From Malacoraja senta (Eukaryota): a stretch of DNA of 64,000 nucleotides. Under the pieces are notes generated by a model. That model ran no database searches, was not told the origin of the DNA, and saw nothing but the letters and a program-made list of their open reading frames with translations. The position numbers and the translations under genes were made by a program. The stretch lies in contig CM075987.1 in the NCBI GenBank assembly GCA_038087875.1, positions 22,508,001-22,572,000 on the forward strand, read 5' to 3'. Positions 1,001 through 57,763 of this stretch are shown one piece after another. The stretch's first letter is position 1; every line of letters starts with the position of its first letter.

Positions 1001-1660
1001 GCACTTTATCAAATGGCTTTAAGAATCACTCGTCCCCATTACTTACTGCTGGTTACATCACTAAACATGTCTGGACATCTGCCAAACATAATTTCCCTTC
1101 CATAAAACACGTAGATTTTGCTTATTATATTATGATTTCTAAGTGCCTTGCCACTTTCTCAAATGTGAATTCTCTTATTTTGCCAACTACTAAAGTCAGG
1201 CTAGCAGGCCTATGGTTCCTTATTTCCTCTTTCCCCCAGGTAACTTTGTTAAGTTTGCTATTGTTCCTTCTACGTCGGATCTTGTCTAAATGTCGTAAAT
1301 GCGGGTTGATCATTCATGACACGTCCAGTACGTCTGTGCTAAGCTCCTCTGAACACTGAGACAGTTTTTAATCCCATCCCTTAGCTTTCTTTTATTAGTG
1401 ATCACTTTAAGTTCCTCATGCTCATTACTTTGCCACTGATTTGGATGTTATTTGTTTCTCCTGCTGTGAACGTTTAAAACAAAGGCGTTCTTTAATGTTC
1501 TATCCTTTTCCTTATTCTAATTTCTCTGGTCTCATTCTCTAAGTGATCCACATTTACTCTGATTGCTCTCTTACATTATACATATTCATTATCAGTTTCG
1601 ATAGTTATTGCTAATTTACCATCAAGTTGCGAATTTACCATATAATATATGGTAATGAAT

Positions 1661-2215
1661 CCTGGTGACTGCGCAGGACTGGCAGCTTTCTGTAGACCTG
1701 GTGAAACAGCTGATGTTTCCACTGCGCATTGCCACGACCACCCTGAGGCCAGACATCCTCCTGGTCTCAGAGGCAACCAAAAACATCGTCTTGTTGGAAC
1801 TGACAGTGCCGTGGGAGGATCGTCTGGAGGAGACCCACGAGAGGAAGATGACCAAATACGAAGAGCTGGTCTTAGACTGCCGTAAGCAGGGCTGGAAGGC
1901 AAGGTGTATCGAGGTTGGCTGCAGAGGTTTTGCAGGGCAATCACTCTACAAAGCCTTGAGTGCACTGGGCATCAACGGAGTGGCGATGAGAAAGCCATCA
2001 AGAACACCACAGAGGCAGCGGAGAAGGCCTCGAGATGGCTCTGGATCAGGAGAGAAGGTCCATGGGGAGGAGCGAATGCCACCTGAACACAAGTCGTGGT
2101 CTGATCAACCACGGCTGGGTCGCCTGGGTGAGGCTGTCTGATTTTGAAAGACCTGAAACACCCAATGATCCCAAGTTACATCACTGATGATGTGTTCAGG
2201 AGCATCAAGAGATGT
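1661..2215 (+). mobile_element. 3' fragment of a non-LTR retrotransposon with restriction-like endonuclease (HERO-like)
   Basis: TTLRPDILLVSE..IVLLELTVPWEDRLEETHERKMTKYEEL..IEVGCRGF, then frameshifted AAEKASRWLWIRR: a PD-(D/E)xK-type RLE domain, followed by a short 3' UTR. Confidence 0.8.
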
Positions 2216-3010
2216 ATTTTTTTTAATCAATCACCTTCTTTATCAATGTGTTGGCCATCATTTGCAGGTTTGAAAATTTGCCCCAATCCTCACCACTTCA
2301 TACGTTTTTTCCCCAAAATGCCCAAGCCTTTAGTTTTAACGAAAATCAATCAATTTTCTCTTCACTTCATCACAAATGTATGATTATTCTTTCCATGGAA
2401 TTTTGTTTCTCAGTAGAGTGTATATTCATTGAGAACTGTCATAGAATCAGAACAATAGATTTCCTTTGTGTATTTACCATTACACGTCGCATGTCATACT
2501 CTTGAAATATAATTTCTCAATCTACCTTAGCAGACCTGGGGTTTATGTATTATGTATTCTAAACTGGGTTTACTTAATTCTGAATCTCTAAATTTGTTAA
2601 GTAGATTACTTTTGATTAATGCAAAATTATTATGATATCACTCTCATTCAGATGATCCAGTTCTATTAGGTTGCAAATTAACATTTTGTCTCAAATAACC
2701 TGTACTTTGATGGGCTCCACAATGTTCCCCAGAGACTATCCCTAACACATTCTATGAATTGTTTACCAAACTGCTCCTGCCAGTTTGATTTGTCGTTTCA
2801 AGCTGAAGATTAAAGTCTCCTTTAATTCTTGCATTACCTTTACAACAAGCTCCACTTACTTCCAAATATATTGCTATTGACTAGAGAATTCTAAACTACC
2901 CCAACTGGATTTTTTTGTCCTTTGTTGCTCAACTCCATCATATTGATTCAGAGGCATATTTGAAAAACGGCAGAACTAATACCTCAGCATTCCAGGGTAT
3001 AGAACCTTCA

Positions 3011-3440
3011 GGTGTGTGTGTATGTGTGTGTGAGAGAGTGCGCGTGTGCTTGTGAGAGTATGTGTGAGTGAGAGAGAATGTGTGTTTGTATGTGCGTGCG
3101 TGTATGTGTGTGTATACGTGTGCGCTAATCGTGTCTGTGTGTGTGTGTGTGAGTATTGTGTGTATAGTATGTGTGTGTGTGTGTGAATGCTCGTGTGTGC
3201 ACGTGTGTGTGTGTTTGCGCATGTGTGTATGTGTGTGTGAAATGTAAAGCTGGAGGGAGGGATGTGGGTGGACGGGGACAAGGAGGGAGGGAAAAAGTGG
3301 GGGATAAAACGGAGATAAATAGGAGACTCAGGGATGGGAGATGAGCATATGGAGGAGGGGGACGAAGCAGGGTGGCACGGGGTGGGGGGAAATGTGTGTG
3401 TGCCAGCATGAGGGGGGTGGGCACGGGAAAGAGGGGGTGG
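3011..3440. repeat. Degenerate (TG)n microsatellite followed by a G/A-rich low-complexity tract
   Basis: Directly visible; source of the spurious His/Thr-rich ORFs. Confidence 0.95.
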
Positions 3441-4049
3441 ATGTGGATTATTTACTTGACATTATTCTCTGCCATGTGGATGACTCTCTGCTCTAACTTC
3501 TGATCCAAGATCTTTCTTCACTGCTGCTCTAATGTCATACTCGCTTCCTTCTCCATTTTACCTTTGTTGTCACCATGTTTAAATCTCTTGGAATATTCAG
3601 TCCGCAACCTGAGTCATCATACGCTATCGTGGCCATTGAATCAAATTAATTTATCCCTATGAAGTAACGGGTTGATAAGAGTAAGTTGATTAATATTGTG
3701 CATATTATCTTATTTCAAAGTGATATGAAACAGTGTTAGATAACCGATATTAGCAAGATGAAAGCTAATGCAATTAAAGAGACAATGACACGATGGATGT
3801 AAAAAGTAGCTGAAGGACAGTTATGTATATAATGACATTCTACAGGAGTCACTGTTAGGACCACTGTTTTTTTGATAAACTGTATATTAATAGCCTAGAC
3901 TTGATTATTCAGAGGATAATATCAAAGTTTACAGGTGACGTTAAATTCAGAAAGGAAGTAGGTTCTGCGGAGAATAGTAATAAACATAGACTGACTGGTG
4001 AATTGGACAGGCATGTGGCCGATGACATTTAAAGCACAGGAGTGTATTG

Positions 4050-4225
4050 TGAAGGTTGACAAAAACGCTGGAGAAACTCAGCGGGTGAGGCAGCTTCTTC
4101 AGAAGGGTCTCGACCCGAAACGTCGCCTATTCCTTCGCTCCATAGATGCTGCCTCACCCGCTGAGTTTCTCCAGCTTTTTTGCCTACCTTTGATTTTTCC
4201 AGCATCGGCAGTTCTTTCTTAAACA
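4050..4225. mobile_element. Short fold-back element made of inverted Penelope-type 3' ends
   Basis: gctggagaaactcagcgggtgaggcagc ... gctgcctcacccgctgagtttctccagc inverted arms. Similar fold-backs at ~4670-4890, 21305-21465, 36065-36235 and 53570-53820. Confidence 0.7.
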
Positions 4226-5319
4226 CAACGGAGTGTGAAGTGATGCTTTTTTATAAGGAGGAGGGGCAAGATGGATTAAATGCTATAATTTTAAGGACGG
4301 GGGAATCCAGAGCAGAAACAAAGTGGTCTGTGTGTGCAAACTGATTGAGTTTGGCAGGACATGGGAGGTGCAGGTATAAACAGCAATCAGGGATTTGTGA
4401 CATTAATAATATGACATTAATAATTGAGGCCTAGACCTCAACTGGTGTTTGTGTTCATTTCTGGGATAGACCTCATTAGAAAAGCTGTTAGACTTAGAGA
4501 GACTGCATGAAATATTTATTAGTTTGGTGCTGGGGATCAAGATATTGAACTCCATGTATTGATCAGTTGAGTAAGGAAGAGATTTTCTGGTGGGAGAAGA
4601 TTGATACCAGAAAACAGAGGTTTCAGGTGATTGGCGGAAGAACCAAATTGATACTGAATTGATATGTGGAGACACACAAGACTGCAGATACTGAAATGTT
4701 GATTAAAACACAAAGCGCTGGGGGAACTCAGTGGGTCAGGCAGCATCTGAGGAGGAAATGGACAGATACATTTTGGGTCAGATCCTATCTTCAGACTGAT
4801 GAAGGGGTCATGTTCTGAAATGTCATCTGTCTATTTCCTCCCCAGATGCTGCCTGACCTGCGGAGTTCCTCACACATTGTGGTTTTGCACAGAATTGATT
4901 TGCCGTTTGTTATGATTTAGAATGAACTGCCTAAAGTGAAAGCAGATTCAGTAGAATCTTCAAAAGCAATTGGAGAAAACCTTGAATGGGAAGAAACTGC
5001 CAGGATTATAGGGAAGAGGGAAAAACTAATTGAGCAGTTCTTTCAAATAATTAGTAAAGGCACAATATACACATCACTTCTTTCTGCTGCATCAGATAAT
5101 AAAGCATTCTTAATTCACATGTTTAATCAATAATGTGTTATTATTAATGTTTAATGCTTTGTGTGTCATTCCTAACTGTCACTGTATGTCATGTTGTCAC
5201 TTGTGGGCGGAGCACCAAGGCAAATTCCTTGTATGTGAATACTTGGCCAATAAACTTGTTCATTCATTCATTCATTCATTCATAACTGATAGATCATCCA
5301 CTCATTTATCTCCTCCCGC

Positions 5320-13671: not shown

Positions 13672-14227
13672 TAAATGGAAGAGGTTCCATCATGGGTTTT
13701 GTTTGTTGTGGTTTATTGATTTACTGTTATGGGAAAATGGACTCTGTTGACAGATTGGTCTAGTGCCCGGTTTAAAGACTCCGTTTGCTGAGTCAACCGA
13801 TGTTCTTTGCCCGAACTCCAACTCATTACCTGACACCAAGGTTCAACACTCTACTCACTTGTGTCACCCCCCTAGAATGTTTATATGGTATAAATCTTGT
13901 GTGTAAAATCCATCCTCGTCACTTCGAGCTACAGCGATTTCAGGCAGGATTGGCAGGGGAATTGCCAGGTCACTGCCGTTCCGATTGGGAAATGCATACG
14001 GACTGCAGTGAGCTGTAATCAGGAGGGGAAAAAAAGCTAATATTTACATTTCTATGGAGACACAAGAGAGTGCAGATGCCCGAATCTGAAGCAACAATCA
14101 ATCTGCTGGAGGAAGTCAGCGACTCGCTGGGTCGAGCTCTGCATCAGTGAGGGGAAGGGAATGGTTTCACATTTCAAGTCAAAACCCTGTACTAGTCCTA
14201 ATGCAGGGTTTAGACCCAAAGCGTTGA

Positions 14228-14740
14228 CTATTCTTGCCATAGAGGGAGTAAAGGGAAGGTTCACCAGACTGATTCCTGGGATGGCAGGACTTTCATATGA
14301 AGAAAGACTGGATAGACTCGGCTTGTACTCGCTAGAATTTAGAAGATTGACAGGGGATCTTATAGAAACTTACAAAATTCTTATGGGGTTGGACAGGCTG
14401 GATGCAGGAAGATTGTTCCCGATGTTGGGGAAGTCCAGGACAAGGGGTCACAGTTTAAGGATAAGGCCGTCTTTTAGGACCGAGCTGAGAAAAACATTTT
14501 TCACACAGAGAGTGGTGAATCTGTGGAATTCTCTGCCACAGAAGGTAGTTGAGGCCAGTTCATTGGCTATATTTAAGAGGGAGTTAGATGTGGCCCTTGT
14601 GGCTAAAGGGATCAGGGGGTATGGAGAGAAGGCAGGTACAGGATACTGAGTTGGATGATCAGCCATGATCATATTGAATGACGGTGCAGGCTCGAAGGGC
14701 CGAATGGCCTACTCCTGCACCTATTTTCTATGTTTCTGTT
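14228..14740 (+). mobile_element. CR1 LINE 3' fragment inserted into a Penelope-end element
   Basis: ILAIEGVKGRFTRLIPGMAGLSYEERLDRLGLYSLEFRRL...; nearly identical to 28135-28637. Confidence 0.9.
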
Positions 14741-18741: not shown

Positions 18742-20143
18742 TGACTGGAGCAGGTTATTTGAAGGGAAAGGAACATCGGCCAAGTGGGACGTTTTTAAAA
18801 GTGTGCTGACGATAGCTCAGGATATGTACATCCCCGTTGGAGTGAAGGGCAAAGCAGGCTAACGTAAGGAAACTTGGCTGACAATGGAAATTGAGGTGTT
18901 GGTCAAAAACAAGAAGGATGCATGGGACAGGTATAGGCAGCTGGGATCAAGTGTATCCCTGGAGGAGTTTCGGTAGCTAAGGAGTAAACTGAAAAAGGAG
19001 ATCATAAGGTCAAAAAGGGGCCAGGAGATAGCTCTGGTGGGTAGCATTAAGGACAATCCCAAAATGTTTTATAAATATATGGGGGGAAATGGTAACTAGA
19101 GAGAGTGGGACCTCTCAGGAATCAAAGGGCTCACCTCCGTGTGGAGTCACAGCAGATGGGCAAGGTCCTCAATGAGTATGTCTCCTCTGTATTTACCGAG
19201 GAGAAAGACAATAGGAAAGAGGAACTTGGGGCAGTCAATGGAAGCGTCTTGCGAGCAGTCAGTGTTACCATCGAAGAAGTACTGAAGGTACTGCCATGTA
19301 TGAGGGTAGACAAATCTTCAGGGCCTGATCAGATAAATCCTAGGACATTGCGAGAAACTAGAGAGGAATTTGCGGGAGCCCTGGTTGAAATTTACGAGTC
19401 GTCCTTAAATACAGGAGAGGTGCCGGAAGACTGGAGGGTGGCAAATGTTGTGCCTCTTTTCAAGAAGGGCTGCAGGGAAAATGCTGGGAACTATAGGTCG
19501 TTGAGCTTAACATCTGTAGTTGGAAAGTTACGAGAGAGTATTCTAAGGGATAGGTTATACGGGCATTTGGATGGGCAAGGGCTGATTAGGGATAGTCAGC
19601 ATGGTTTTGTACATGGGGGGTCGTGTCTCATAAAATCTGATTGTTTTTTTGAAGACGTGACCAAAAAAGTTGATGAGGGCAGAGCTGCAGATGTTGTGTA
19701 CATGGATTTCAGTAAGGCATTCGACAAGGTTCCGCATGGTAGGCTGTTCAGAAAGGTTAGATTGCATGGGATCCAAGGAGAGATAGCTGAATGGATAGAA
19801 AATTAGCTCCATGGAAAGAAGCAGCGGGTGATGGTGGAAGGTTGCTTCACGGACTGGAGGCCTGTGACTAGTGGTGTGCCTCAAGGTTCGGTGCTGGGCC
19901 CATTACTGTTTGTCATCTACATCAACGATTTGGATGAGAACGTACCAAGTCTGCTGAGGATACAAAAGTGAGTGGTTTTGCAGATAATGAAGATGGCTGT
20001 GAAAGAATGCAGCAGGATCTGGATCGATTGGCCAGGTGGGCGGTGGAATGGGTGATGGAATTTAATACAGAGAAGTGTGAGGTGTTGCATTTTGGGACCT
20101 CGAACAAGGGCAGGACCTATACAGTAAATGGTAGGCCTCTGGC
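18742..20143 (+). mobile_element. CR1 ORF2 internal fragment (RT domain, decayed)
   Basis: [42 protein letters not shown]; stops and frameshifts. Flanked by minus-strand CR1 pieces (18620-18745, 20145-20445). Confidence 0.9.
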
Positions 20144-25050: not shown

Positions 25051-25572
25051 TCCTTTAACTTTGATTCACATTAACTTGGCCAGAGCAATGTGATTGGACA
25101 GAAGGCTTGCAGGATGGCTCACTATGACTTGTTATTCCAACATCAGGGAACGTTCAAAGATATTTGGAGCCAAGGAATGTTATTATTTGCATTCATATAA
25201 CAGGAGTTTAAATGATTCACCACTAAATCACACTATATAAAGTAGTGTGAATCACATTTAGAGTTCTAATTGCCAGACTAAACGTCCATTAATGTGTCGG
25301 TAACCACCAAACAATCCTTTGAAAATGTCCAAATGACAGGACAAACAGGCCCTTGGTCTTATCTGAAAGTTCATTTGTATCACAAAGCAGCACCCCTTCA
25401 GCATTGCTTTGGCAGGTCATCCTGAACTATGGCCAGAGATGAGACAAGAAGTTTATGTTTAATAGTCAGGGAGTTGAAGAGACTATAAACAAACAAGCTT
25501 GGCATTGGAGAAACATACTTCATTACAGGCAAGTACTCAAGAGAAGATTCTGCTGTCACCAACAGGTCTGTA

Positions 25573-28500
25573 CAGTGCTGTCGGGGAGGATTTAAACTAA
25601 TGTGGCAGGGGAATGGGAGCATGAGTAGAGAGACAGAGGGGTGTAAAATGAGGGTAGAAGCAACAGGTAGCAAGGTGAAAAGTAAAAGTGGCAGGCAGCA
25701 AAATCCAGGGCAAAAATCAAAAAGGGCCACTTTTCAACATAATTGTATAAGGGGTAAGAGTGTTGTAAAAACAAGCCTGACGGCTTTGTGTCTCAATGCA
25801 AGGAGCATTCGTAATAAGGTGGATGAGTTGAATGTGCAGATCGTTATTAATGAATATGATATAGTTGGGATCACGGAGACATGGCTCCAGGGTGACCAAG
25901 GCTGGGAGCTGAACATCCAGGGATATTCAATATTCAGGAGGGATAGACAGAAAGGAAAAGGAGGTGGCGTAGCGTTGCTGGTTAGAGATTAACGCAATAG
26001 AAAGGAAGGACATTAGCTTGGAGGATGTGGAATCGATATGGGTAGAGCTGCGAAACACTAAGGGGCAGAAAACGCTAGTGGGAGTTGTGTACAGGCCACC
26101 GAACAGTAGTAGTGGAGTTGGGGATGGCATCAAACAGGAAATTAGAAATGCGTGCAACAAAGGTAAAACAGTTATAATGGGTGACTTCAATCTACATATA
26201 GATTGGGTGAATCAAATTGGCAGGGGTGCTGAGGGAGAGGAGTTCTTGGAATGTATGCGGGATAGTTTTCTATACCAACATGTAGAGGAACCAACGAGAG
26301 AACAGGCTATTCTAGACTGGGTATTGAGTAATGAGGAAGGGTTGGTTAGCAGTCTTGTTGTGCGTGGCCCCTTGGGCAAGAATGACCATAATATGGTTGA
26401 GTTCTTCATTAGGATGGAGAGTGACATTGTTAATTCAGAAACAAGTGTTCTGAACTTAAAGAAGGGTAACTTTGAGGGTATGAGATGTGAATTGGCCAAG
26501 ATAGACTGGCAAGTGATTCTTAAAGGGTTGACGGTGGATATGCAATGGAAGGCATTTAAAGACTGCATGGATGAACTACAATTGTTCATCCCAGTTTGGC
26601 AAAAGAATAAATCAGGGAAGGTAGCGCATCCGTGGATAACAAGGGAAATCAGGGATAGTATCAAAACAAAAGATGAAGCATACAAATTAGACAGAAAAAG
26701 CAGCCTACCAGAGGACTGGGAGAAATTCAGCGTCCAGCAGAGGAGGACAAAGGGCTTAATTAGGTAAGGGAAAATAGATTATGAAAAAAACCTGGCAGGG
26801 AACATAAAAACTGACTGCAAAGGTTTTTATAGATATGTGAAGAGAAAAAGATAAGTTAAAACAAATGTAGGTCCCTTGCAGTCAGAAACTGGTGAATTGA
26901 TCATGGGGAACAAGGATATGGCAGACCAATTGAATAACTACTTTGGTTCTGACTTCACTAAGGAAGACATAAATAATCTGCCGGAAATAGCTGGGGACCG
27001 GGGGTCAAATGAGATGGAGGAACTGAGTGAAATCCCGGTTAGCCGGGAAGTGGTGTTAGGTAAATTGAATGGATTAAAGGCCGATAAATCCCCAGGGCCA
27101 GATAAGCTGCATCCCAGAGTACTTAAGGAAGTAGCCCCAGAAATAGTGGATGCATTAGTGATAATTTTTCAGAACTCTTTAGATTCTGGAGTAGTTCCTG
27201 AGGATTGGAGGGTAGCTAATGTAACCCCACTTTTTAAAAAGGGAGGGAGAGAAAACGGGGAATTACAGACCAGTTAGTCTAACATCGGTAGTGGGGAAAA
27301 TGCTAGAGCCAGTTATTAAAGATGGGATAGCAGCACATTTGGAAAGTGGTGAAATCATTGGACAAAGTCAGCATGGATTTATGAAAGGTAAATCATGTCT
27401 GACGAATCTTATAGAATTTTTCGAGGATGTAACTAGTAGAGTGGATAAGTGAGAACCAGTGGATGTTATATCTGGACTTTCAGAAGGCTTTCGACAAGGT
27501 CCCACATAAGAGATTAGTATGCAAACTTAAAGCACACGGAATTGGGGGTTCAGTATTGATGTGGATAGAGAACTGGTTGGCAGACAGGAAGCAAAGAGTA
27601 GGAGTAAACGGGTCCTTTTCAGAATGGCAGGCAGTGACTAGTGGGGTACCGCAAGGCTCAGTGCTGGGACCCCAGCTATTTACAATATATATTAATGATC
27701 TGGATGAGGGAATTGAATGCAACATCTCCAAGTTTGTGGATGACACAAAGCTGGGGGGCAGTGTTAGCTGTGAGGAGGGTGCTAGGAGGCTGCAAGGTGA
27801 CTTGGATAGGTTGGGTGAGTGGGCAAATGCATGGCAGATGCAGTATAATGTGGATAAATGTGAGGTTATCCACTTTGGTGGCAAAAACAAGAAAGTAGAC
27901 TATTATCTGAATGGTGGCCGATTAGGAAAAGGGGAGATGCAACGAGATCTGGGTGTCATGGTACACCAGTCATTGAAAGTAGGCATGCAGTGAAGAAAGT
28001 GAATGGTATGTTAGCATTCATAGCAAAAGGATTTGAGTATAAGAGCAGGGAGGTTCTACTGCAGTTGTACAGGGTCTTGGTGAGGCCACACCTGGAGTAT
28101 TGCGTACAGTTTTGGTCACCAAATCTGAGGAAAGACATTCTTGCCATAGAGGGAGTACAGAGAAGGTTCACCAGACTGATTCCTGGGATGGCAGGACTTT
28201 TATATGAAGAAAGACGGTTGTACTCGCTAGAATTTAGAAGATTGAGGGGAGATCTTATAGAAACTTACAAGATTCTTAAGGGGTTGGACAGGCTAGATGC
28301 AGGAAGATTGTTCCCGATGTTGGGGAAGTCCAGAACAAGGGGTCACAGTTTAAGGATAAGGGGGATGTCATTTAGGACCGAGATGAGAAAATCATTTTTC
28401 ACACAGAGAGTGGTGAATCTGTGGAATTCTCTGCCACAAAAGGTAGTTGAGGCCAGTTCATTGGTTATATTTAAGAGGGAGTTAGATGTGGCCCTTGTGG

Positions 28501-28637
28501 CTAAAGGGATCAGGGGGTATGGAGAGAAGGCAGGTACACGATACTGAGTTGGATGATCAGCCATGATCATATTGAATGGCAGTGCATGGTTGAAGGGCCG
28601 AATGGCCTACTCCTGCACCTATTTTCTATGTTTCTAT
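25573..28637 (+). mobile_element. CR1 LINE with nearly complete but disrupted ORF2 (APE endonuclease + RT)
   Basis: LNARSIRNK..GITETWL..RRDR..GGGVALLV; VYRPPNS; IMGDFN; RT motifs [31 protein letters not shown]. Split into five ORFs by frameshifts and stops; tail ttttctatgtttctatg. Confidence 0.95.
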
Positions 28638-34116: not shown

Positions 34117-34778
34117 ACCACACACCCACTAGTTAAAATTCCCAGTTTTTGGGGGGGGGGGTTTAAACAGGTGCCAGAGCAGCACTGCACCCCTGAACTG
34201 CAATCTGGTGAGTAAATACAACAGATCTTGGGGATACAAGCAAACTACTGCAAATACAGCAGTTTCTGCATGAAATAAACGAGTTTCAGACTTTTTTTTA
34301 AAAAGAGAAATTTCCTGCATTTTCTACTTTTCAAATTGCATATTTTTAGCATCTGCAGTTATTTTGATTTTCAAGACATAAAGATGATTTTGTGTTGGCT
34401 GGAGTGTCCAGAATGAGCGATTTTAACCTCAGGATAGGCGATGTGCTATTTATACCATAGATTTTCTCAGTCAGAGGATTGTGAACCTGTGGACGTCTCT
34501 ACCAAAGGCATCAGTATAGGTCAATTAATTATATTCAAGAAGGAGGTATATTTCTTAATGCTAAGGAGATCGACAGGTATGGACCAAAGATGAAAGGGTG
34601 CTAAAGTGGATGATCACAGTGAATGATGGAGAAAGTTCAGAAAACCCAACAGCCTACATCTGCTTCTACCTTCAGTATTCTCAAAACCAATTCTCTGCTT
34701 AAAATAGAGGCTGCAGCCTTGGTTCAATTTCCATCTCTCCTCCAAACCCATCCCTATCAGTTTTGGTCAACGACATAC

Positions 34779-35031
34779 CGATCACCCATTGGATCCAGAT
34801 GACATCGTATCGCTGGGGTTGGGGGATGAAGTCTTGCAAACCACAGCAGAAATAGTTGCCTACGCGTTTGCCCTCCTCCCCCAGGTGGGTCTTGGCCTTG
34901 GCCAGGAAATCTTCTGTCACATCCACCATGTCAACGACTTTAAACATGGGTAGAAGCAATCGTTTGGTGATTCTGCCGATCCCAGCACCACAGTCCAGTG
35001 CACAGCTAGCCCCTGCTTTCTCAGATCCTTC
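34779..35031 (-). CDS. NTMT1: NTMT1 middle coding exon (SAM-binding motif I)
   Basis: Acceptor caacag|GAA, donor ATC G|gtatgt. 253 nt. Encodes EGSEKAGASCALDCGAGIGRITKRLLLPMFKVVDMVD...YDVIWIQWVIG with the class I methyltransferase LDCGAGIG motif. Confidence 0.96.
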
Positions 35032-35344
35032 CTGTTGAGAACAGAAAACAGCTTGAACCAGCAGCAGTAGCGCAGGATGTTGTATATTTCTGTAGCCTGA
35101 AACATATCGCTCTCTGCCTATACTGGAGTTGTAACAAGCTCTAACCATGGTAGAAAAACAGAAAATGCTGGAAACATGCAGCAGATCAAACAGGATATCT
35201 CCAGAACTACCTTCAATTATTTTATTTCAAAAAAATCAGTTACTGTCGCAATTTAGGAACAAAAGGGCAAAATTTATACATAGCAGTTTTACCAAATGAA
35301 TAATCTTTCTTTAAAAAAATTCATTAAAGAATAAAAGTTACTTC

Positions 35345-38318: not shown

Positions 38319-38518
38319 NNNNNNNNNNNNNNNNNNNNNNNNNNNNNNNNNNNNNNNNNNNNNNNNNNNNNNNNNNNNNNNNNNNNNNNNNNNNNNNNNN
38401 NNNNNNNNNNNNNNNNNNNNNNNNNNNNNNNNNNNNNNNNNNNNNNNNNNNNNNNNNNNNNNNNNNNNNNNNNNNNNNNNNNNNNNNNNNNNNNNNNNNN
38501 NNNNNNNNNNNNNNNNNN
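38319..38518. other. Assembly gap (exactly 200 N)
   Basis: Run of 200 Ns. The round number suggests a placeholder scaffolding gap of unknown true size. Confidence 0.99.
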
Positions 38519-40794: not shown

Positions 40795-41280
40795 TATAGA
40801 AACATAGAAACATAGAAAATAGGTGCAGGAGGAGGCCATTCGGCCCTTCGAGCCAGCACCGCCGTTCATTGTGATCATGGCTGATTGTCCCCTATCAATA
40901 ACCCGTGCCTGCCTTCTCCCCATATCCCTCGACTCCACTAGCCCCATGAGCTCTATCTAACTCTCTCTTAAATCCATCCAGTGATTTGGCCTCCACTGCC
41001 CTCTGTGGCAGGGAATTCCATAAATTCACAACTCTCTGGTTGAAAACGTTTTCTCACCTCAGTCTTAAATGACCTCCTCTTTATTCTAAGACTGTGGCCT
41101 CTGGTTCTGGACTCGCCCAACATTTTTCCTGCATCTAGCTTGTCCAGTCCTTTTATAATTTTATATGTTTCTATAAGATTCCCCCTCATCCTTCTAAACT
41201 CCAGTGAATACAAGCCTAGTCTTTTCAATCTTTCCTCATATGACAGTCCCGCCATCCCAGGGATCAATCTCGTGAACCTA
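40795..41280 (-). mobile_element. CR1 LINE 3' fragment
   Basis: RFTRLIPGMAGLSYEERLKRLGLYSLEFRRMRG; (catagaaa)n tail as read on the plus strand. Confidence 0.9.
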
Positions 41281-41609
41281 ATCTCGTTATCAGGCAACTG
41301 AGCCATGCTACCACAACCAGAGAGCAGTGGTGAACTACTATCTATCTCATTGGTGACCCTCGCACTATCTTTGGTCGTAACTTTACTGGCTTTACCTTGC
41401 ACTAAACGTTATTCCCTGATCATGTATCTCCATACACTGTGAATGGCTCGATTGTAATCATGTATTGTCTTTCAGCTGATTGGTTAGCACGCATCAAAAG
41501 CTTTTCACTGTACCTCGGTGCACGTGACAATAAACTAAAACTGATCTGAGTTGCTTCCTCCCACCCTTTGGCCTGACTCCGTGGCCACACCGCCCCTCCG
41601 GGCACTCAC

Positions 41610-47600: not shown

Positions 47601-48492
47601 GGAAATTTAGTTGTGGGAGCGGTCTTTGCACTGGCCCTCAGCTTACACTCCATCTCCAGAAACCAAGTTCAAACGCGAAACAGGTCCAAGGAACTGTAAA
47701 CATCATGCCTAGAATGAAAGAACATCCGGATTAGCGCTTGGAAGGGAACTCGCAGAAAAGTCATTAGAACTCCAAAATACCAAAACGTGCAGGTTGTGCA
47801 TTAATTGGTTTCTGTAAATGGTTCTTAGTGTGTAGGATAGATCTAGTGTCCGGGTGATCAATGGCCGGCGTCGACTCAGTGGGCCTGTTTCCACGCTGTA
47901 TCTCTAAACCCAGTACGTGACTCAACTTCTGAGAAGCTTCCGGAAGGGTGAAAAGCTGCACAAACCAGTCCCTGGAGCAGCTGATTTCTATATCACTGTT
48001 TCAGGAGTCAGCCTGTGGGGTGCAATCCCACTCATTCTTCCCAATTAGTCAGTTTCAAATAAATTCACCGCACACCTCCATTACTGAAGGTGGACGAAAA
48101 TGCTGGAGAAACTCAGCGGGTGAGGCAGCATCTAGGGAGCGAAAGAAATAGGCAACGTTTCGGGTCGAGACCCTTCTTCAGACTCCATTCTTCCATTACT
48201 GAAGGTAGTTACAGAGCAGCAGTGCGAGCCCGTGAGCATTCACGGATGGGTTCAGGATAATTATTGTCACGTGTACTGAGATACAGCGAAAACATTTGTT
48301 TTGCGTGTTATCCATCAAATCACACACACACGTACATAAACACAATCAAGCTGAACACAAGTACTGTAGAGCAAAGGGAAAGCTAGAGTGCAGAATTTAG
48401 TTTGCAGCATTGTAGCGCACCAGTTCCAGAGACAACGTTAAAGGGATAATGGACATGATCACACCTATTTCTCACACCTCTGCTCTCATGCT

Positions 48493-49959
48493 GTAGCGAA
48501 GTTACAAAACGTACCTTCAGCGGCGCTGCAGTTCTGCCACTGGCCGTGTGCGCGACTTTAGCGCCTTTGAGGGGGGGGGGGGGTGGCGGGATTAAAATCC
48601 AGTTTCTACTGCTTATCGGAGGCGGACTTCCTCGGGCTGCTAGCTGCTGAAGAATAATCGATCGGACTTCCGTTCCCGATTTTTTTTTAAATTGCGAGAC
48701 AATTTAATAATTATATCAAAATAAAAAGTGACTTCTAACGCCCTCAACGCCTACAACGTGACGGATCGCAAGAACGGGACAAAACAAAGGTTAAGTCGTT
48801 TATTTTACATATAAACTTGCTTCTTGGGATGGCTTTAATCTAATTTTATGTTGCGAAAATATTATTTGGGCCCCATACGAACCGGCAGTGTTTTTCATGC
48901 CTATATGGAGTTCAAATTCACCGCAAATGCAACGTTCCAATCGATTGCGTTCCAGAAAAACCCACTCGCAAGATGATTTAAATGCTCTTTTTTTTTTGTG
49001 GACAATCATGTCGTAAGAGCATCTAAATCGTCTATATTTTGTGTTATTGTCTATCCAGAGTCAATATTTTTATACTAAATATCACTTTTAGTCCCATGTA
49101 TTGTGCAAAAAAATAATAATTTTGATTATATTGAGTGGATGTTTAAACATTAAATTCCTTCCATCTGGCATATAAATTCATGACAGTATGATTTAAAAAT
49201 CATGTTATATTGTGAATTCTTGTGTGAATGGGATTAGTTTGTTATTTGGATACTTAGGCGATTTAAAAAAAAAAAAAAAATCTTAAGAAATGGAATCTAC
49301 AGGACATTCTTAATGGGAAAGTAGTGGGCAGAAAGGCATGTCATGCATGGTTTGAAGAGCAAAAACTTGTAGTTTACAATGCCAAAATTGAAAAGTTGAG
49401 GAAAAACAAGGTGTACAGAGTTGCTTATTGGTTACAATCTGAGGAGTATGATGATGCGACTGATTATGATATGCCAATGTACCAGCTAGCAACTGGTCTT
49501 CTCCATAAAGACCTGGTCTATTGCTAGAAATTATAATTTATTTACATATCTGTTACGGACTTACAGCATATAATACAATAATATTAAAATTTTGTAATTA
49601 ACTACAATTAGGTAATTAACTAGTTATATGCTTTAATTTCAGGTCATCCAAGTAAGATGTTTTATATTTGTTTCAGAATGCTTCAATCTATAATAACTGA
49701 AAATTTCATTCAGTTCTCTTAATTTTTAAGAAAGTTATGGGCTTTTGACTGTCCTCGATCACAGCTTTTGTGTTAAGTCAATGGAAAAGCAATAGGGAAC
49801 AAAATAATAATTTCCGAGCATGAAAATGGCCATAACTTTTTTAATACTGAAGATATGAAAGTGAATTAGGTGTCAAATTAAACTTCTTTTTATGCTTTAT
49901 CTGATAGGATAAATTGCAGACTTGATTTTTTAAATCTCAAAATGTTGTAACATTGCTAC
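48493..49959 (+). mobile_element. Non-autonomous DNA transposon with short imperfect TIRs and 5-bp TSD
   Basis: ATGCT|GTAGCGAAGTTACAAAA ... TGTTGTAACATTGCTAC|ATGCT. Lies immediately upstream of, and probably within, a decayed Penelope fragment. Confidence 0.8.
49291..49527 (+). pseudogene. Transposon-borne C-terminal coding remnant, Spindlin/Tudor-like domain
   Basis: WNLQDILNGKVVGRKACHAWFEEQKLVVYNAKIEKLRKNKVYRVAYWLQSEEYDDATDYDMPMYQLATGLLHKDLVYC*. By-eye similarity to Spin/Ssty repeats; no in-frame ATG precedes the domain. Confidence 0.55.
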
Positions 49960-51495
49960 ATGCTACCCTAATATACCCCTGGACAAAACATCCTTTGCAA
50001 TATTGCAAAAACCAGCTCCAATATTTCACTGCCCGTCACATATTCTTGTCTCCTTTCAACATTTTAAGACAATGACTCCCTGGTCCATTCTTCCAGCCCC
50101 ACAAACCACTTCCTGTTGTATGGTACTTTCCCAAACCACGGAAGGACTTGCAACCCCTGTCCCTGCACATCTTCCCTCCCGTCATCCAGGAACACCCCCC
50201 TCCCCCAGGTGAAGCAGTGATTCACACACTTCTTCCAATCTCGTGACCTGCAAACACTATGTGATCCTCTCTACACTGGAGAAACCAAATGCAGGTTGGA
50301 CGATTGTTCTGTAGAGCAGCTGCCTTCGAGCCCACAGGCTGAACTTCAATTTTGTTTTGCCTGCTCCTTTAATTCTCAATCTCACCCAACTTCACTCTCC
50401 CACGCTGTTAAAACACGGCGCAACACAAGCTTGTGGAACAAGGGCGGCACGGTAGAGTTTCTGCCTTACAGCGCCAGGGACCCGGGTTCCATCCTGACTA
50501 CGGGTGCTTGACTGTACGGAGTTTGTACGTTCTCCCCATGACCTGCGTGGGTATCCTCATGGAACTCCGGTTTCCTCCCACACTCCAAAGACATACAGGT
50601 TTGTAGGTTAATTGGTTTGGTATAATTGTAAATTATCCCTAGTGTGTGTAGAATAGCATTAGTATACGGGATCGCTGGTCGACACGAACTTGGTGGGCCT
50701 GTTTCCTCACTGTATCTCTAAACTAAACTACGTCTTCTGTTTAAATTGGCAGGACCCTTCGGAAGATATTTGGGGTGCAAGACCTCACTCTGGAAGTGAG
50801 AAGGCGGCATACAGCATATTTGCTCTAAGTAGAACACAGAACAGAATGGGAACAAACCCTTCGACCCACAAAGTCTGTGCCAAACAGGATGCCAAGACCA
50901 ACTCTTACCTGCCTGAACATAATCTAGTCCCTACATATCCATATGCGCCTATCCAAAAATAACGTAAATGCTAAAATCGTATCTGCCTACACCACTACCC
51001 TGGCATCACATGCCAAACACTCATTGCTGCTCTCTCAGGTAGATGGCAATAAAGAAAATAAACAAACATGTGCAGATGATGTGCCTTTGATTACAAAAAA
51101 AAAATCACAATATGGACCGTTTCTTAAGAATGCATTCACCTCCGTACTGCAGAGTCGCCTATACTACACTGTGTGAGATGGTGAAAGTTGTTTTTAAATT
51201 GCAAGTTTTTAATCTGTTTTTCAGCACCTCCTTGCACAATTTTCTGCATTGCCTCTCTGAACCATTCTCCTCCCGCAACACTAAATCTGAACCCGAGCAA
51301 AAATAAGATCTGTCCCATCTGGATTGAGAAGTCTTGCACCAAACCTCAGCCTTTGTTTCAAGACATAATCTCAAAACAGTAGTATTTCACAATCCAGCCA
51401 CAGTAATATTGCAATATTAACCAGTTTCATACTCAATCACCAGAACTTTCCACTGACACATCGTTTTGCTTCAATACCTCCGTATATTCTGCAAC

Positions 51496-51618: not shown

Positions 51619-54542
51619 CTGACAGGATCAGAAAAACAATAAAAAGGGTTACAACTCAGTAAAAACAAAAGCTCCTGGCATGCAGGACATTTTGTAGAAT
51701 CCAAGGCTAATCAACCCAACCTTTTTTCTTAATTTAAACATTTTGGTTACATTAAACAAGGCAGGAATAGACAGAGTTAAATTCTGTCCAAATCTTATAT
51801 AATACTTGCCTATCCTGGTCCAATTTTCTTTACAACAAGCTATTCTCATGTCACTAAAAGCAAAAATTGCAGATGCTAAAAATTTGAAATGAAAACATTT
51901 CAAAGGCATTTTCTATTTTATTGTTATGTCATTTTGCCCAGTTCCATTAATTTGCAGCCAACTAAGTAGACTTTCGGGCCAGATGTGTCAATGAAGATGA
52001 TTTATGAAGAATTAAACCATGGCCTCAGATTGATGAAGAACTGGTTTAAGGCTCCCTGAATGAATTGCAGCCCCCCCCATGGCAGGAGGGAGTGGGAAAG
52101 AGAAGGAAGGGGAAGGGGAGAGTGGGCCAGAACACATCAATGAAGAGCCAGCAGTGACATAGAGACTTCCTGGCACACTGTGGACTTCTGGATGTGTGCT
52201 ACAGTGCAAACGAGCTCTTGGTCTGGCCCTGCATTCAACATTAAATCCAGGGGCCAGACACACCTCATACCAGGATGACACGGTGGCGCAACGGTAGAGC
52301 TATTGCCTTACAGCACCAGAGACCTCTGTTCGATCCTGACTAGGGGTGCTTGTCTGTACGGAGTTTGCACGTTCTCCCTGTGACCTGTGTGGGTTTTCTC
52401 TGGGATTTCCGGTTTCCTCCCACTCTCCAAAGACATACAGGTTTGTGGGTTAATTGACTTCAGTAAAATTGTAAATTGTCCCGTATGTATGTAGGTTAGC
52501 GTAAGTGTGTGGAGATCGCTGGACGGTGCAAACTGAGTGGACCGAAGGGCTTGTTTCTGCGCTGTATCTCTAAACTAAACTAAACCCCTCAGCTTCTCAC
52601 TGCTGGTTCAACTGACAATGCCAACAATCATTTCATTGGAGTTGGTGATCCACATCTGAACACTAAGTTTCATGTTTATATTTATTTCACAATAGTTTTT
52701 AAAGTGAAAATTCATACAATTTTGAATAAATCTAATTTAATTCTTTTTCAGTCACATCTCATTAGAGACATTTAGAAATAGTGAAAAAGGCTTCCGACAG
52801 CATGTGGTGCCAGCAAACCATTAGGGCAGTCTGTCAACTGGTCACCACTTTAGAGGCTGGCTCAATCTAAACAATGGCTGCAGCAGCAATGTCAGGAATG
52901 GGAGGGCGGCACAGTGGTGCAGCTGGTAGAGCCGCTGCCTCAGAGTTCGATCCCGACCTCGGGTCCTGCCCGTGTGGAGTTTGCACGTTCTCTCTCTCTG
53001 ACTGCGTGGGTTTCCTCCCTCCTTCGAAAGACACGAGGGTTTGTAGGTTTATTGGCATCTGTAAATTACCCGTAGTGTGCAGGGAGTGGATGAGAGTGAA
53101 ATAACAGAACGAGTGTGAACGGATGATCGATGGTTATCTTGGACTGGGTGGGCTGAAGGGCCCATTTCCATACTGTACCTCTAAACTAAGGAAGCAGCCA
53201 TGCTTCCACAAAAGTGAAGTGGAGGTTGTGAGTGCAAGGTGGAACCTGTACAATAAGCCAGTCCATTAAATACCTCAGAACGGCTGAATTCAAATCAAAT
53301 TCACTGAGCCACCCGCACTGGTTAACATTCCTCTCCCTCAAATTAAACCTCAGCTCTGAGAGCACCACAACCACTGATGTACAGATAGGTTACAAACACT
53401 CCCAGTTTTGCTAAAACACTATTGGCTCTTCCATGTTTGTCGTTGAGTTAGAAAGATATTTTTCACAGTAATGAATAGCGTGCCAATCACTGTGCATTGG
53501 AAAATGTTGCAGCAGTGTCCACAGTGTATTTAGCTCAGACTTTTCAGTTAATGAAAAGAGATAGCTGTGTGGGAAGGAACTGCTGATGCTGGTTTAAACT
53601 GAAGATAGACACAAAATGCTGGAGTAACTCAGCGGGTCAGACAGTATCTCTATTCGGATTAAGTCTGAAGAAGGGTCTCAATCCGAAACGTCACCCATTC
53701 CTTCTCTCCAGAGATGCTGCCTGTCCCGCTGAGTTATTCCAGCTTTTTGTGTCTATCACAATTTCACCTATTCCTTTTCTCCAGAGATGCTGTCTGACTG
53801 GCCGAGTTACTCCAACATTTTTGCATCTAAAAGAGATAGCTGCTTTGTTTGTTCGGCAGCCACGAGGCAGAAGTACAGTTTGGATCAGCTTCTGCTTCCA
53901 GGTCCTTCACATCTAACCTTCCTCCATTACATAACTAACATTTTTTCACTCCACTTCCTTTTTGCTAAAGAGTCCACAGTCACGGGAGAGAGAGAGAAAA
54001 AAAACGAACTACTTTCCACAGTTATACCACCCACTGTCTGAGCAGGCTTTGCTTTTTGAATACCACATAACCAGGTGGGGAAACACCAGGTTCACTGGTG
54101 TGGGTGGGGAGCGCTTAAACAACATTGGTAGTGGGATGGGCACCAGCATGCAGTAACAAAAGTGGAATAGGGTGGAGAAAGTAGAAGTGCAGGATAATAG
54201 AGAAGGAAGCTTTTCATTATCAGATGGGAGCAGACAAATAGATTGAGAAATTCAAATCTATATTTAGAATCCAAGTAGTCAGAACCCTTTTCCCCCATGT
54301 TGGAAACATCAAAGACTTAAGGGCAATGATTTGCGGTGAAAGGGGCAAATTGAAAGGAAATGTGCAGGGCATGTTTTTTTTTTTCTATAGAGGGTGGTGG
54401 GTGCGTAGAATGCACTGCCAGGGGTTGTGGTGGAGACAGATACGATGGCCAGGGAATAGAGGGGTATTGATCATTCAAGAGGGGGAAAAGGGGGGGACGA
54501 GAGGGAGAAAATACCATTAGAACATAAACTTCTCCCACTTAC

Positions 54543-56413
54543 CAAACTGCCCAGCAAGTCACAGTCAAATGACAGGTCAGCAGGGATCTCAAAGGGCTGG
54601 TTTGGCTCGCTGCTGGTCACTTCCTCTGTCACGCAGTGTTCTGGCAATCCTTCAGTATCTTCCTCACTCTCTATGTCCGTCTCCGTGTACTCGCATTCTT
54701 CCGAGGAGTCTTGGCTGAGATCTTCATTTGATGAGCTGATTGTGGTGGAAGTCCCCTCCGGTGGTAGCGTGGCCAGAAACGCAGGTAGTGTGAAGGCAGA
54801 GAGAAAGCGAGCTTTCAAGAGCTGGTACGCAGGGTTGTTCTGCAGACGCTCCCTCACTTGCACCCTGGCTGCCTCAAGTCTTATTTTGGGATCAATTGGT
54901 TCATTCACATCGGCTGCCTCGTGGGCAAGCACATTCTGCTCCAGGACCTTCTTGTGCAGCAGTAGGTTTGAGAAGCCTCTCAGAGTCGCAGCAAAGGGTG
55001 GCAGATAAGGTAGGCTAGTTGACGTCCCTGGTACACGGATACCACCTTTCCCTTCCAGCCAGTCTCTCGTTACTGGATCTTTGTCGTGACACAAGAGTGT
55101 AAAGTCAACAGAGGTTTTGTCCGACTGTGACGGTGTGGCTGGCTGCTTGGTCCCCTCGGATGGAGCCACACTGCTGGGCTGTGTACATGGCGACGTGGTA
55201 CTTGCAACATCTACAGTCACCCTTGATTGTCCAGATCCCTGAGCAAGCTGTGTGGTCGATAGAGGAGTGGGATCGTTGCCATCAATGCGGTTAGCTGCCA
55301 CCTGCTTCGTGGCCTCCAGTGCTGGAGGATCTGTGGACGTTGTTGCAGCACTGTTGGATGTCAGACTTGGAGCCAATGCAGACGACAGTGTTTGTTGAAT
55401 CTGCACGTTGCTGGATGATGATGGGACCAACTTGCACGCCGCCAGGGGAGGAGTGTTCAGAGGCTGGCTTGCGGACAGCGTTACACTGGTGGTGGTCTGC
55501 ACTGGTGCTACACTGGGGCCACCAATCTCCGACTGACTGGGTGCAATGGTGGAGTTCACCTGGGCTTGAGTTGTCGAGCTCAACGAGGTGCTGGCACCCG
55601 CTCCACTCTGGGGGACGGTGGTGGTTTGGCTGGCGCCAGTGACTGCGGTGGGAGTTTGGCTATTCGGATTGGGCAGGCCCACGACTGTGCCTGGAGGAAG
55701 ACAGAGCAGACCCTGGGGAGTGACCAGGGCCATGATGGGTACGCTGGAGTTAGGGAGCATTAGTGGAACCACCATGCCGTTGGTCTGCAGCACAGGCTGC
55801 ACTGGTGGCGCTGGAGCAATTGGCTGCAGCCACCTAGCACCACAGTTGGCTTTAGCAGATTGAAGTGAAGCAGCATTCAGTGCAGTGATATTTTTCGTTG
55901 GTTCAACTATGGCTGATGAACCTACCTGACTAGAGTGTGGTAATGGAGCAGCCCCTGTGTTAGCTTCTCCATTTGGTTGCTCCGACAACAGCTGCGGTGT
56001 ACCTGCCACTGGCTTACCATGTGCAGCGTGTCTCACCGTGGATTCAATCTTGGGCTTTGTCCTGCTCCTGGTTTGAATTGAACATTGTTTAACCACTTGT
56101 GATTCAAGACCGACGGGCATCTTGCTGGAAGACGCAGGTTGCGGCATCATCACCACCTGTAATGGTTGCTGGATTGTCAACGGTTGTGGAATGACCAAAG
56201 GTCCGGACGCTAGTCTAGAGGTTTTGATCAGGCTCCTGGCTCTTCGCCTCTCAGCAAGCAGATCTTGGACAGTCTTTGGTTTCTCTTTTGGAGGTGCAGA
56301 GCTGAGCTTAAACCGAGCCATTTCCATGGTCTTCCCATTGCCCACGTCAATGGTGGTTCCTTTCACCTGGTTCAGGTAGGGCCCCGACCTCGACTGGTTT
56401 TCACTCGTGATTG
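54543..56413 (-). CDS. SNAPC4: SNAPC4 (SNAP190) large penultimate coding exon
   Basis: 1871 nt; acceptor tttccag|CA, donor TTG|gtaagt. Contains KPKTVQDLLAERR, LVTPQGLL and WLEGKGGIRVPG..LPYLPPFAATLRGFSNLLLHKKVLE..LQNNPAYQLLKARFLSAFTLPAFLATLPP, matching conserved SNAPC4 C-terminal blocks. Confidence 0.93.
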
Positions 56414-57763
56414 CTGGAAAGGAAAATGACAAGGGAACTGTTGATTGCGAGGCAGAAGCAAAAAAGGGGAAATAGTTTTGGTTGTGGGGAGCTCTAATCA
56501 CATTTGTAATATTTGAATCAGAAACATACAATGTAGTAGCTAGCCAGATCCACCCACAAGTTTAAGTTTGTTGTTTGAAAGACCAATGTTATTAAACTGA
56601 ATATTTTATTTCTATCACAATTTGCCATAGTAACAAACATACTGGAAGACAAAAAGGTGTAAATATCAATCCAGATTCTTCTGCGCAAAAATCACAGCTG
56701 ATGCTCTGGTTCAGTACTGAGAAAACCTTGTACTATTGGGGGTATGGTCTTTCAATGAGGCATTAACATCATTCACTGACTCTGCCTTCTTGTGCAAATA
56801 TAGAACCCATCACAGATTATTTTGAAGAAGAAAGTTCTTCGAAAGTTTCCTCAGTAATTATTTATTTTCTCAGTCACACAAAAAAATCGGTTATATGATC
56901 ATCATATTGCTCACTGTGAGCAGATTATATTTCCTCTAGTGACTATGTTTCCAGGAGACTTCATTGGTTGTGAAAGTGCTTCATGACATCCTGACAAGTC
57001 TTCCTCTTGAAACAAATGACAATGATCTACACCATTACTGGTTCCGATCACACTTCATGTCCAATCTAACTCAGCAACTATTCAATCTACTGGGACCAAC
57101 AACAGAAATGACACGGGCCAACAGAGGGAAAGAAAATGTCTGGAAAATTCTCCCCGGCCTTTGTGAATAAGCGTAACCAGCCAAAGGATGTCAGTTACCA
57201 GCGACAGCTTCATCAGGCTTACAGATACCAGACAAGGAAGGGTCAAGGCTACATTGTGACAGACTCTACCAACACACTACCTCAAATTTAAAAAGTCCCT
57301 CTGTTGGAGAGGTACAATATATATGAATACACTTCCCAGGAGGAGAGGAACGGTGACCACAAGAGAAGTAGTGAGATGACTGCAGGATGAATTTTAGTTT
57401 CATTTACTGTGTGGAGTAATTGAAAAGCTCAAAATTGAGGAACTGAGTATTCACAGCTGAATAAAGATTACATATATATATTAGAAAATCACAAGGGGCC
57501 ATAAGCATCTCTGAACTATGGCCTATTGGGGGCTAGACCATTAGAACGAGACCATTGGAGGAAGAGGGGTGATCTCATAGAGGCCCATCCAGTTGGTGGG
57601 CTGAGGAAAGGGAAAACAATGAACACTATATATTGCAGGTATATACATAATTAAATGTTGGCATCAAATTTGTAGAGTCAAGATTGTCAAGAATGTTTAA
57701 TTGTCACATGCCTAAAGACCAGAATAATTCTCAGATGCGCGTCATTAAAAAGCAACATCATAC

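Follow-up and report, generated by a model that had tools for sequence, protein, structure and literature searches.

A non-autonomous DNA transposon copy in Malacoraja senta and the young, highly repeated family behind it, with a transposase predicted to be hAT-like and to end in a Tudor-like domain

How does a short piece of DNA bounded by inverted repeats come to encode part of a Spindlin-type Tudor-like domain, and what kind of mobile element would carry such a module? The question is raised by a locus in a 64,000-nucleotide stretch of the Malacoraja senta genome (assembly GCA_038087875.1, contig CM075987.1, positions 22,508,001 to 22,572,000 of the forward strand), here called the window, in which an initial annotation had noted an unclassified DNA transposon at positions 48488-49964. 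This study indicates, with a probability of roughly 80%, that window positions 48494-49958 hold a cut-and-paste DNA transposon of a young and highly repeated family, in the form of a non-autonomous copy with an internal deletion, and that the transposase of this family would be hAT-like and end in a Tudor-like domain. The corrected span measures 1465 bp, with the termini TAG...CTA. Its parts were placed by comparison with a full-length, autonomous element from the same genome, found at locus L064.

48487..48493, no strand: left copy of the target-site duplication (TSD), CATGCTG (sequence; 7-bp register from 45 copies).
48494..48509, plus strand: left terminal inverted repeat (TIR), TAGCGAAGTTACAAAA, 16 bp, with the family form TAGCRATGTTACAAAA (sequence; end conservation over 92 ends).
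48494..49294, plus strand: 5' arm, from the upstream region of the autonomous element, its first 320 bp CpG-island-like (alignment to the L064 element).
49294..49295, plus strand: deletion junction, at which about 2.88 kb of the autonomous element (its positions 649-3530) is missing (blastn blocks against the L064 element).
49297..49527, plus strand: coding remnant, the last 76-77 codons and the stop of the 978-aa transposase, with the Spindlin-like Tudor domain (alignment, open reading frame and predicted fold).
49528..49958, plus strand: 3' untranslated part of the element (alignment to the autonomous element).
49717..49853, plus strand: sub-terminal inverted pair with arms at 49717-49746 and 49824-49853 (30 nt, 80% complementary; inherited from the autonomous element).
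49943..49958, minus strand: right TIR, TAGCAATGTTACAACA on the minus strand (sequence).
49959..49965, no strand: right TSD copy, CATGCTA (sequence; 7-bp register from 45 copies).

The two elements, each numbered from its own first base, align in four blocks (blastn).

Window element 1-491 with autonomous element 1-487: 69.5% identity.
Window element 651-802 with autonomous element 507-648: 78% identity.
Window element 803-1102 with autonomous element 3531-3830: 93% identity.
Window element 1096-1466 with autonomous element 3903-4274: 94% identity.

The sequence lost at the junction comprises 178 bp upstream of the ATG together with codons 1 to about 901. This map, drawn against full-length elements of the genome with the same ends, bears out the earlier proposal of an internally deleted cut-and-paste copy. 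A further 73-bp stretch is missing at about 49588-49594; it is kept by most copies, whose alignments are split at query positions 1101-1107, and by the autonomous element (3831-3902). The stop-free frame that had been reported is present from 49267 to 49527, its length being 86 codons. A CpG-rich left arm and an AT-rich body, as first described, were also found: the observed-to-expected CpG ratio of the first 320 bp is 1.39 in the window copy and 1.25 in the autonomous copy. This part of the 5' arm is probably a promoter with the 5' untranslated region (UTR), and stranded polyA reads of run X24 over the arm are mostly sense. The sub-terminal inverted pair has longer arms than previously given; its core arms match exactly in 27 of 73 loci, among which are 11 of the 12 autonomous copies. 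When short sub-terminal repeats were sought as transposase binding sites, no 7- or 8-mer was found to be enriched. The window holds no copy of the family beyond the two ends of this element, and no paralogous empty site was found; the flanks adjoining the insertion are unique. With regard to the 5' arm, the short elements of the window type are only 69-78% identical to the autonomous copies, as against 93-94% in the 3' part. They seem either to be recombinants or to descend from a 5' lineage that is older or distinct.

The genome searched for relatives was the window's own 1.94-Gb assembly. A DNA search with the element gave 5446 first-look candidates, and in the 40 that were scored the matches end at query positions 5-7 and 1470-1474. 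The element is a true repeat, found far more often than chance would allow. A search with the encoded peptide gave 2082 candidates, of which 150 were scored, all with 93-100% protein identity. When a search of a large protein collection with the same peptide was limited to longer proteins, proteins ending in the same domain were obtained, including the 960-aa P0004. This protein gave 4023 candidates in the genome, 48 of them scored, and 14 of the 52 matches listed are stop-free over residues 2-960. At L064 the open reading frame (ORF) is intronless and 978 codons long (L064:1495-4428). It belongs to an autonomous element of about 4.27 kb (4272-4275 bp in the 5-bp register) that shares the ends of the window copy and is flanked by a 7-bp TSD of its own (for example L064:670-4942), so that the full-length copy which the initial annotation expected to be recoverable is at hand.

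Twelve autonomous copies (L061-L072) were compared. They lie at different sites, show a pairwise identity of 99.69% (range 98.92-99.97%) and mostly have open 978-codon frames. Since twelve copies at separate sites are this similar, the autonomous subfamily has moved very recently, and transposition of the family may be continuing in this genome. Copies diverge by about 2% from the majority sequence, which, like the near-identity of the autonomous copies, agrees with the youth first supposed for the family. It counts against the main reading that the polyA reads of run X24 give the interior of the ORF a depth of only 0-3.6x, most of them being 90-95% alike. Over the ends of the element, the reads are mostly sense.

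Other deletion derivatives exist as well, some of them with different junctions. One derivative, about 1 kb long and without the Tudor remnant, is recognised by the joint L064 1339>4571; it was observed in runs X24, X3 and X18, with DNA contigs and 39 polyA reads as its sources. For one DNA run, depth over the ends of the element exceeds that inside the ORF by a factor of hundreds. In runs labelled with at least eight organism codes, 31-letter words of the transposase ORF recur nearly unchanged (shares 0.06-0.78), and the family is therefore common to several labelled organisms, through common descent or through transfer.

The peptide encoded in the window is a neutrally decaying relic of the C-terminal domain; it is no independent gene and cannot be translated alone. 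An in-frame upstream ATG is absent in 50 of 58 copies, including every copy that shares the window junction, and a small Tudor-only protein made from non-autonomous copies is ruled out on this ground. The frame of the remnant is broken in 14 of 29 copies picked by DNA similarity, and an aspartate that is near-invariant in the alignment (54/56 rows) is a glycine in the window copy. Differences from the majority amount to 2.16, 1.92 and 2.16% at codon positions 1, 2 and 3, and to 2.25% in the 3'UTR. As the codon positions diverge equally and match the 3'UTR, the decay is neutral. Selection on the remnant was considered in view of the high protein identity of the 150 scored matches, which is explained by their ranking and by the youth of the family; the identity of the remnant equals that of the 3'UTR. 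A remnant acting as a gene would show an in-frame start and purifying selection in copies of the window type, and neither was found.

In longer copies the peptide is attached to a transposase, as had been anticipated: it forms the C-terminus of a long DDE-type transposase, both in this genome and in distant relatives. Each of the 26 full-length relatives that were aligned, the most distant at 24% identity, has a single copy of the domain at its C-terminus, and among the 150 best hits there are 48 whose alignment reaches at least residue 974. Because the domain occurs in every one of the 26 full-length relatives, it is an integral part of the enzyme that is kept by selection.

The fold of this domain was modelled with AlphaFold2 (AF2) from an alignment of 56 rows. 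The model of the window peptide reached a predicted local distance difference test score (pLDDT) of 93.9 and a predicted template modelling score (pTM) of 0.80, with the order helix, four strands, helix and short strand. Foldseek gave Spindlin1 (5jsg_A) as the top hit at an E-value of 0.025 and a probability of 1.0, and Spindlins occupy the top 24 rows of the structure search. The predicted fold is that of a Spindlin-type Tudor-like barrel. In profile comparisons with hhalign, the domain-only profile matched repeat 1 of the host Spindlin with a P-value of 4.3e-6, a score of 30.9 and a probability of 87%, and repeat 2 with a P-value of 5.3e-4 and a score of 20.9. In the controls, reversed sequences gave scores of 11-13, and 100 shuffles gave maxima of 15.3 and 16.5, below both real scores. 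These values point to a significant but weak profile similarity to the host Spindlin repeats.

Several searches count against a Spindlin assignment. Pfam Spin-Ssty (PF02513) misses the window peptide at E<=10, and it is absent among the 25 listed of 92 families for the 56 domain members. Over the whole genome, PF02513 finds only the host Spindlin gene (6 matches, 18 candidates) and no transposon copy, and a BLASTP comparison of the peptide with the host Spindlin repeat finds nothing. Of the Spindlin-type domain that was first proposed, the Tudor-like fold, the Spindlins as nearest solved structures and the profile match stand, whereas membership of Pfam Spin-Ssty does not. Among the Tudor-clan families of Pfam, PTM_DIR17_Tudor finds 4 of the 56 members, the best at an E-value of 2.7e-5, and Agenet finds 2, at 0.013. 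The nearest named Atlas clusters, which serve as leads only, are PTM_DIR17_Tudor (0.81) and Spin-Ssty (0.80 and 0.79). The host Spindlin gene, with three Spin-Ssty repeats, was located at G000:C1:146910001-146913122 and, with identical scores, at C1031:213027-216144; the two loci may reflect a duplication or a double assembly.

The domain exhibits a high conservation of aromatic residues. In peptide numbering, W28 is conserved in 53 of 55 sequences, Y37 in 50 of 55, Y54 in 54 of 56 and Y/F67 in 48 of 56, and these residues lie on strands 1-4 of the model. D62, D66, D77 and D82 are the conserved acidic residues. W28, Y37 and Y54 fall, in the hhalign register, on what we take to be three cage positions of Spindlin. 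W920, Y929 and Y946 of the transposase, together with the aromatic residue at position 67 of the window peptide, may accordingly be regarded as a candidate cage, read here from residue conservation and register.

Tudor-like repeats of Spindlin (Spin/Ssty) read methylated histone H3 and H4. Compared with Spindlin, the transposase has one such domain and not three tandem repeats, the domain goes unmatched by PF02513, it is fused to a transposase, and its ligand is a predicted one. Judging from its fold, its profile match and the conservation of its aromatic and acidic residues, the C-terminal barrel may, at slightly less than even odds, anchor the transposase to a methylated histone tail. The main rival to such anchoring is that the barrel is a general SH3-like accessory domain which binds DNA or oligomerises and reads no histone mark, as in the C-terminal domain of retroviral integrase and in the small barrels of TnsB, MuA and TraI. 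We regard this role as rather doubtful. The Spindlins in the top 24 rows of the structure search stand ahead of proteins of the TnsB/MuA/TraI type and of integrases, and the profile similarity is specifically to Spindlin repeats. In addition, the four candidate cage aromatics, three of them on Spindlin cage positions, and the acidic residues are conserved in the pattern of a methyl reader, and acidic loops suit DNA binding poorly.

With regard to the enzyme as a whole, the 978-aa protein was used as the phmmer query against 1.84 billion representatives. At E<=1e-3 this search returned 1855 representative clusters, of which 310 reach E<=1e-30. Few of the proteins are named; the named relatives are three uncharacterised or hypothetical proteins from a crinoid, a gastropod and a nemertean, and the family is accordingly present in marine invertebrates, for which a taxonomic survey had been suggested. 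The transposase consists of an N-terminal region with a coiled coil, the DDE core, a lysine/arginine-rich linker and the C-terminal Tudor-like barrel. In alignments of 26 and 49 sequences, D429 in GFDATT, D506 in SDRxAxN and E784 in NIDAEE were found to be conserved, C531-x-x-H534 is invariant or nearly so, and RYxGNRxH and GPWM are further conserved motifs. D429, D506 and E784 are candidate catalytic residues. The AF2 model of residues 340-835 reached a pLDDT of 93.9 and a pTM of 0.89. It places D429 on β1, D506 after β4, C531 and H534 after β5, and E784 on a helix behind a large helical insertion. All 12 Foldseek hits of this core model at E<=1e-3 are Hermes, the best at 1.1e-6. A DDE RNase-H core with a large alpha-helical insertion, Hermes-like overall, is the architecture expected of a hAT transposase, and it is the one that the model predicts. 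The enzyme would be hAT-like in architecture, and the candidate class named by the initial annotation finds support in this confident core model, for which every Foldseek hit at E<=1e-3 is Hermes.

The sequence searches weigh against a hAT assignment. At E<=0.1, 20 full-length members match no Pfam transposase family, and at E<=10 the top 25 Pfam families for 49 core members include no transposase. When PDB sequences were searched with phmmer and hmmsearch, Hermes was not among the hits (in one of the searches, not among the best 60 of 117 rows), which were coiled-coil noise only. Sequence identity to Hermes is 10-12%, no sequence method ties the core to hAT, and the TSD is 7 bp and not the 8 bp usual for hAT. 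Hermes may be only the nearest solved representative, since the CxxH superfamilies Kolobok, MuDR and Dada have no solved structure. The DDE core with its helical insertion and the CxxH motif are shared with Hermes and hAT. In contrast, the lysine/arginine-rich linker and the Tudor-like domain behind the catalytic region are additions of this family, and a BED zinc finger was not detected in this transposase family. The short TIRs of hAT elements begin 5'-YARNG; among the ends found here, TAGCG fits, and TAGCA and TAGGT differ at the fifth base. The P superfamily is defined by a P-element-like transposase fold and, in addition, by a THAP DNA-binding domain.

The absence of a sequence-level link to hAT favours the view that the family lies outside hAT, in another or undescribed CxxH superfamily (relatives of Dada, Kolobok, MuDR or KDZ), and that its architecture is merely common with Hermes. 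According to the available part of PMC8869645, the CxxH motif is common to hAT, Kolobok, MuDR, P and Dada. TSDs of 7 bp are also described for Dada (6-7 bp, PMC8869645) and for Kyakuja (PMC12730594), as far as the accessible text of these papers goes, and the Atlas clusters nearest to the family (scores 0.90-0.93) consist of unnamed proteins found most often in Basidiomycota and Mollusca. We nevertheless consider this placement unlikely. Dada, by the portions available of PMC3706591 and PMC8869645, has a DxxH motif, N-terminal CCCC and C-terminal CCHC zinc fingers, introns, a length of 4.7-11 kb and tRNA, snRNA and 5S targets. The present family, in contrast, has CxxH, an intronless ORF and a C-terminal Tudor-like barrel, and the features of Dada were not seen in it. 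Its TSDs and flanks are diverse and AT-rich, without a common RNA gene.

A TSD shorter than 8 bp has precedents among hAT elements. Named subgroups with 5-, 6- and 7-bp TSDs exist, and hAT7, from Pucciniales, is classified as hAT, has 7-bp TSDs and clusters with fungal and plant hAT of the Ac/Tam3 type, as stated in the accessible part of PMC12730594. Compared by description, hAT7 is alike in TSD length and is the only named 7-bp hAT group found, the present family being one of animals. The part of PMC12730594 that could be consulted mentions no Tudor domain for hAT7.

Returning to the barrel, the closest structures are those of Spindlin, RDM15 and BAHCC1, all of which were solved with methylated histone peptides. 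This, together with the profile match, makes it quite improbable that the domain binds a methylated non-histone host protein instead (for example through dimethyl-arginine, in the manner of SMN/TDRD) and serves nuclear localisation, stability or the evasion of silencing.

The ends of the element were revised. ATGCT is present at 48488-48492 and at 49960-49964, and the inverted ends agree at 14 of 17 positions as the initial annotation wrote them. The inverted ends and the ATGCT repeat are real, but the termini GTAG...CTAC lie one base too far on each side, and the two TSD copies in the window are identical at six of seven positions, the last base being different. The register was tested on 45 genome copies with a perfect inner 5-mer repeat, using 2000 shuffles across copies. 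In 43 of the 45 copies (shuffle mean 19.3, maximum 28) the base in front of TAG is identical to the one that follows the right 5-mer. The base behind CTA is identical to the one that precedes the left 5-mer in 41 (shuffle mean 14.9, maximum 26), and both matches hold together in 39. Because the outer bases co-vary between the flanks, the TSD is 7 bp long and the termini are TAG...CTA. The 5-bp repeat looked perfect in the window since the single mismatch of the TSD hid the outer bases.

As for the target, C precedes the inner 5-mer in 23 of 46 copies, G succeeds it in 27 of 46, and the inner 5-mer is 80% A+T. The family thus exhibits a palindromic preference, C-WWWWW-G. This preference and one point mutation were sufficient to disguise a 7-bp TSD as a 5-bp TSD with longer TIRs. 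The 16-mer TAGCRATGTTACAAAA also terminates a metagenomic relative (L075, 59% protein identity), and the TIRs of another relative (L083, 37% identity) begin TAGGTATGT. The flanks of the L083 TIR pair do not match each other, probably because the contig is a collapsed repeat assembly.

Two other readings of the ends were rejected. TGT...ACA termini with a 3-bp TGC TSD, which had been named as an alternative, are ruled out by the base preceding GTAG, which is unconserved among copies. A 5-bp TSD with a hypervariable terminal base was superseded by the 7-bp TSD from the co-variation of the outer bases. Animal hAT-type elements with a 5-bp TSD are known as hAT5, from invertebrates and fish (PMC9004415 and the reference list of PMC12730594, each in its accessible part); compared by description, both families have a TSD below 8 bp, 7 bp here and 5 bp in hAT5. 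Membership of the element in this 5-bp-TSD lineage as a GTAG...CTAC element is refuted, for although ATGCT is perfectly repeated in the window copy, where G and C lengthen the inverted repeat, and 39 of 51 end pairs have a perfectly repeated 5-mer, the supposed terminal base is G in just 51 of 92 ends (positions 2-4 and 7-15 in that numbering being 97-100% conserved) and tracks the opposite flank, which is the signature of a 7-bp duplication.

We propose the following mechanism for the family. The window copy is a passive substrate that needs the 978-aa enzyme in trans. Having kept both recognition ends, with about 800 bp on the 5' side and some 660 bp at the other end, it would be mobile only if transposase were supplied, and the autonomous 4.27-kb copies in the same genome could supply it. 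Judging from the fold, the enzyme would work by DDE chemistry of the hAT type and cut C-WWWWW-G sites with a 7-bp stagger. The Tudor-like domain would tether the transpososome, through its aromatic cage, to the methylated tail of a histone or to some other chromatin protein that is methylated, and such tethering would bias the integration site or the chromatin state of the target. That the domain is a working methyl-histone reader in a hAT-like transposase, and that the family picks or avoids sites by chromatin state, is put forward tentatively, with the odds somewhat against it. A bolder corollary would be that the Spindlin repeats and the transposase domain share ancestry through capture or domestication. 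As regards insertion near promoters or CpG islands, CpG-island-like 200-bp windows make up 8.4% near 44 copies (88 flanks) against 5.8% in the background, no clear excess, in a crude and weak test whose background was a single window and in which old insertions have been filtered by selection.

The proposed logic, a chromatin-mark reader that steers a DDE recombinase, resembles that of chromoviruses (Ty3/gypsy), whose integrase carries a chromodomain, and of LEDGF/p75, whose PWWP domain makes it a host tether of retroviral integrases. Those are retroelement integrases, whereas the enzyme considered here would be a cut-and-paste, hAT-like one with a domain of the Spindlin/Tudor type and no chromodomain. 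To our knowledge, chromatin-state targeting of integration has so far been known from retroelement integrases.

Several other features of the window were observed. Immediately to the left of the insertion, at 48246-48443, there is an unrelated interspersed repeat of about 190 bp; it gave 3293 first-look candidates in the genome, and its scored copies are 77-81% identical, so that it is older than the transposon. Long stop-free frames with motifs resembling endonuclease and reverse transcriptase, as judged by eye, occur at the following positions, and several of them share a conserved C-terminal stretch; they are probably fragments of long interspersed nuclear elements.

14041-14649: stop-free frame, probable fragment.
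19096-19806: stop-free frame, probable fragment.
25489-28547: stop-free frame, probable fragment.
40968-41408: stop-free frame, probable fragment.

A run of N bases, translated as X, is found at about 38330-38500. Two frames on the minus strand are probably host exons.

34699-35226, minus strand: frame with a glycine motif like that of S-adenosylmethionine-dependent methyltransferases (by eye).
54471-56561, minus strand: open frame of 696 codons, rich in serine, threonine and proline.

Non-autonomous elements of the hAT type are commonplace, and the window copy itself is an ordinary, dead relic. It leads, nevertheless, to a large transposase family that is invisible to Pfam, with a 7-bp TSD, a core predicted to be Hermes-like and, at its end, a predicted Spindlin-like Tudor barrel. 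A fusion of a transposase with a Tudor domain or with Spindlin was not found in the titles and the beginnings of abstracts searched, a scope that did not extend to Repbase reports. If the domain does read histone marks, the family would offer a testable case of chromatin-guided integration by a cut-and-paste transposase. Given more than 12 intact, 99.7%-identical copies, it could then be an active animal DNA transposon with intrinsic epigenetic targeting in a vertebrate-like genome, and its intact, near-identical copies could serve as a gene-transfer tool with an inbuilt targeting module.

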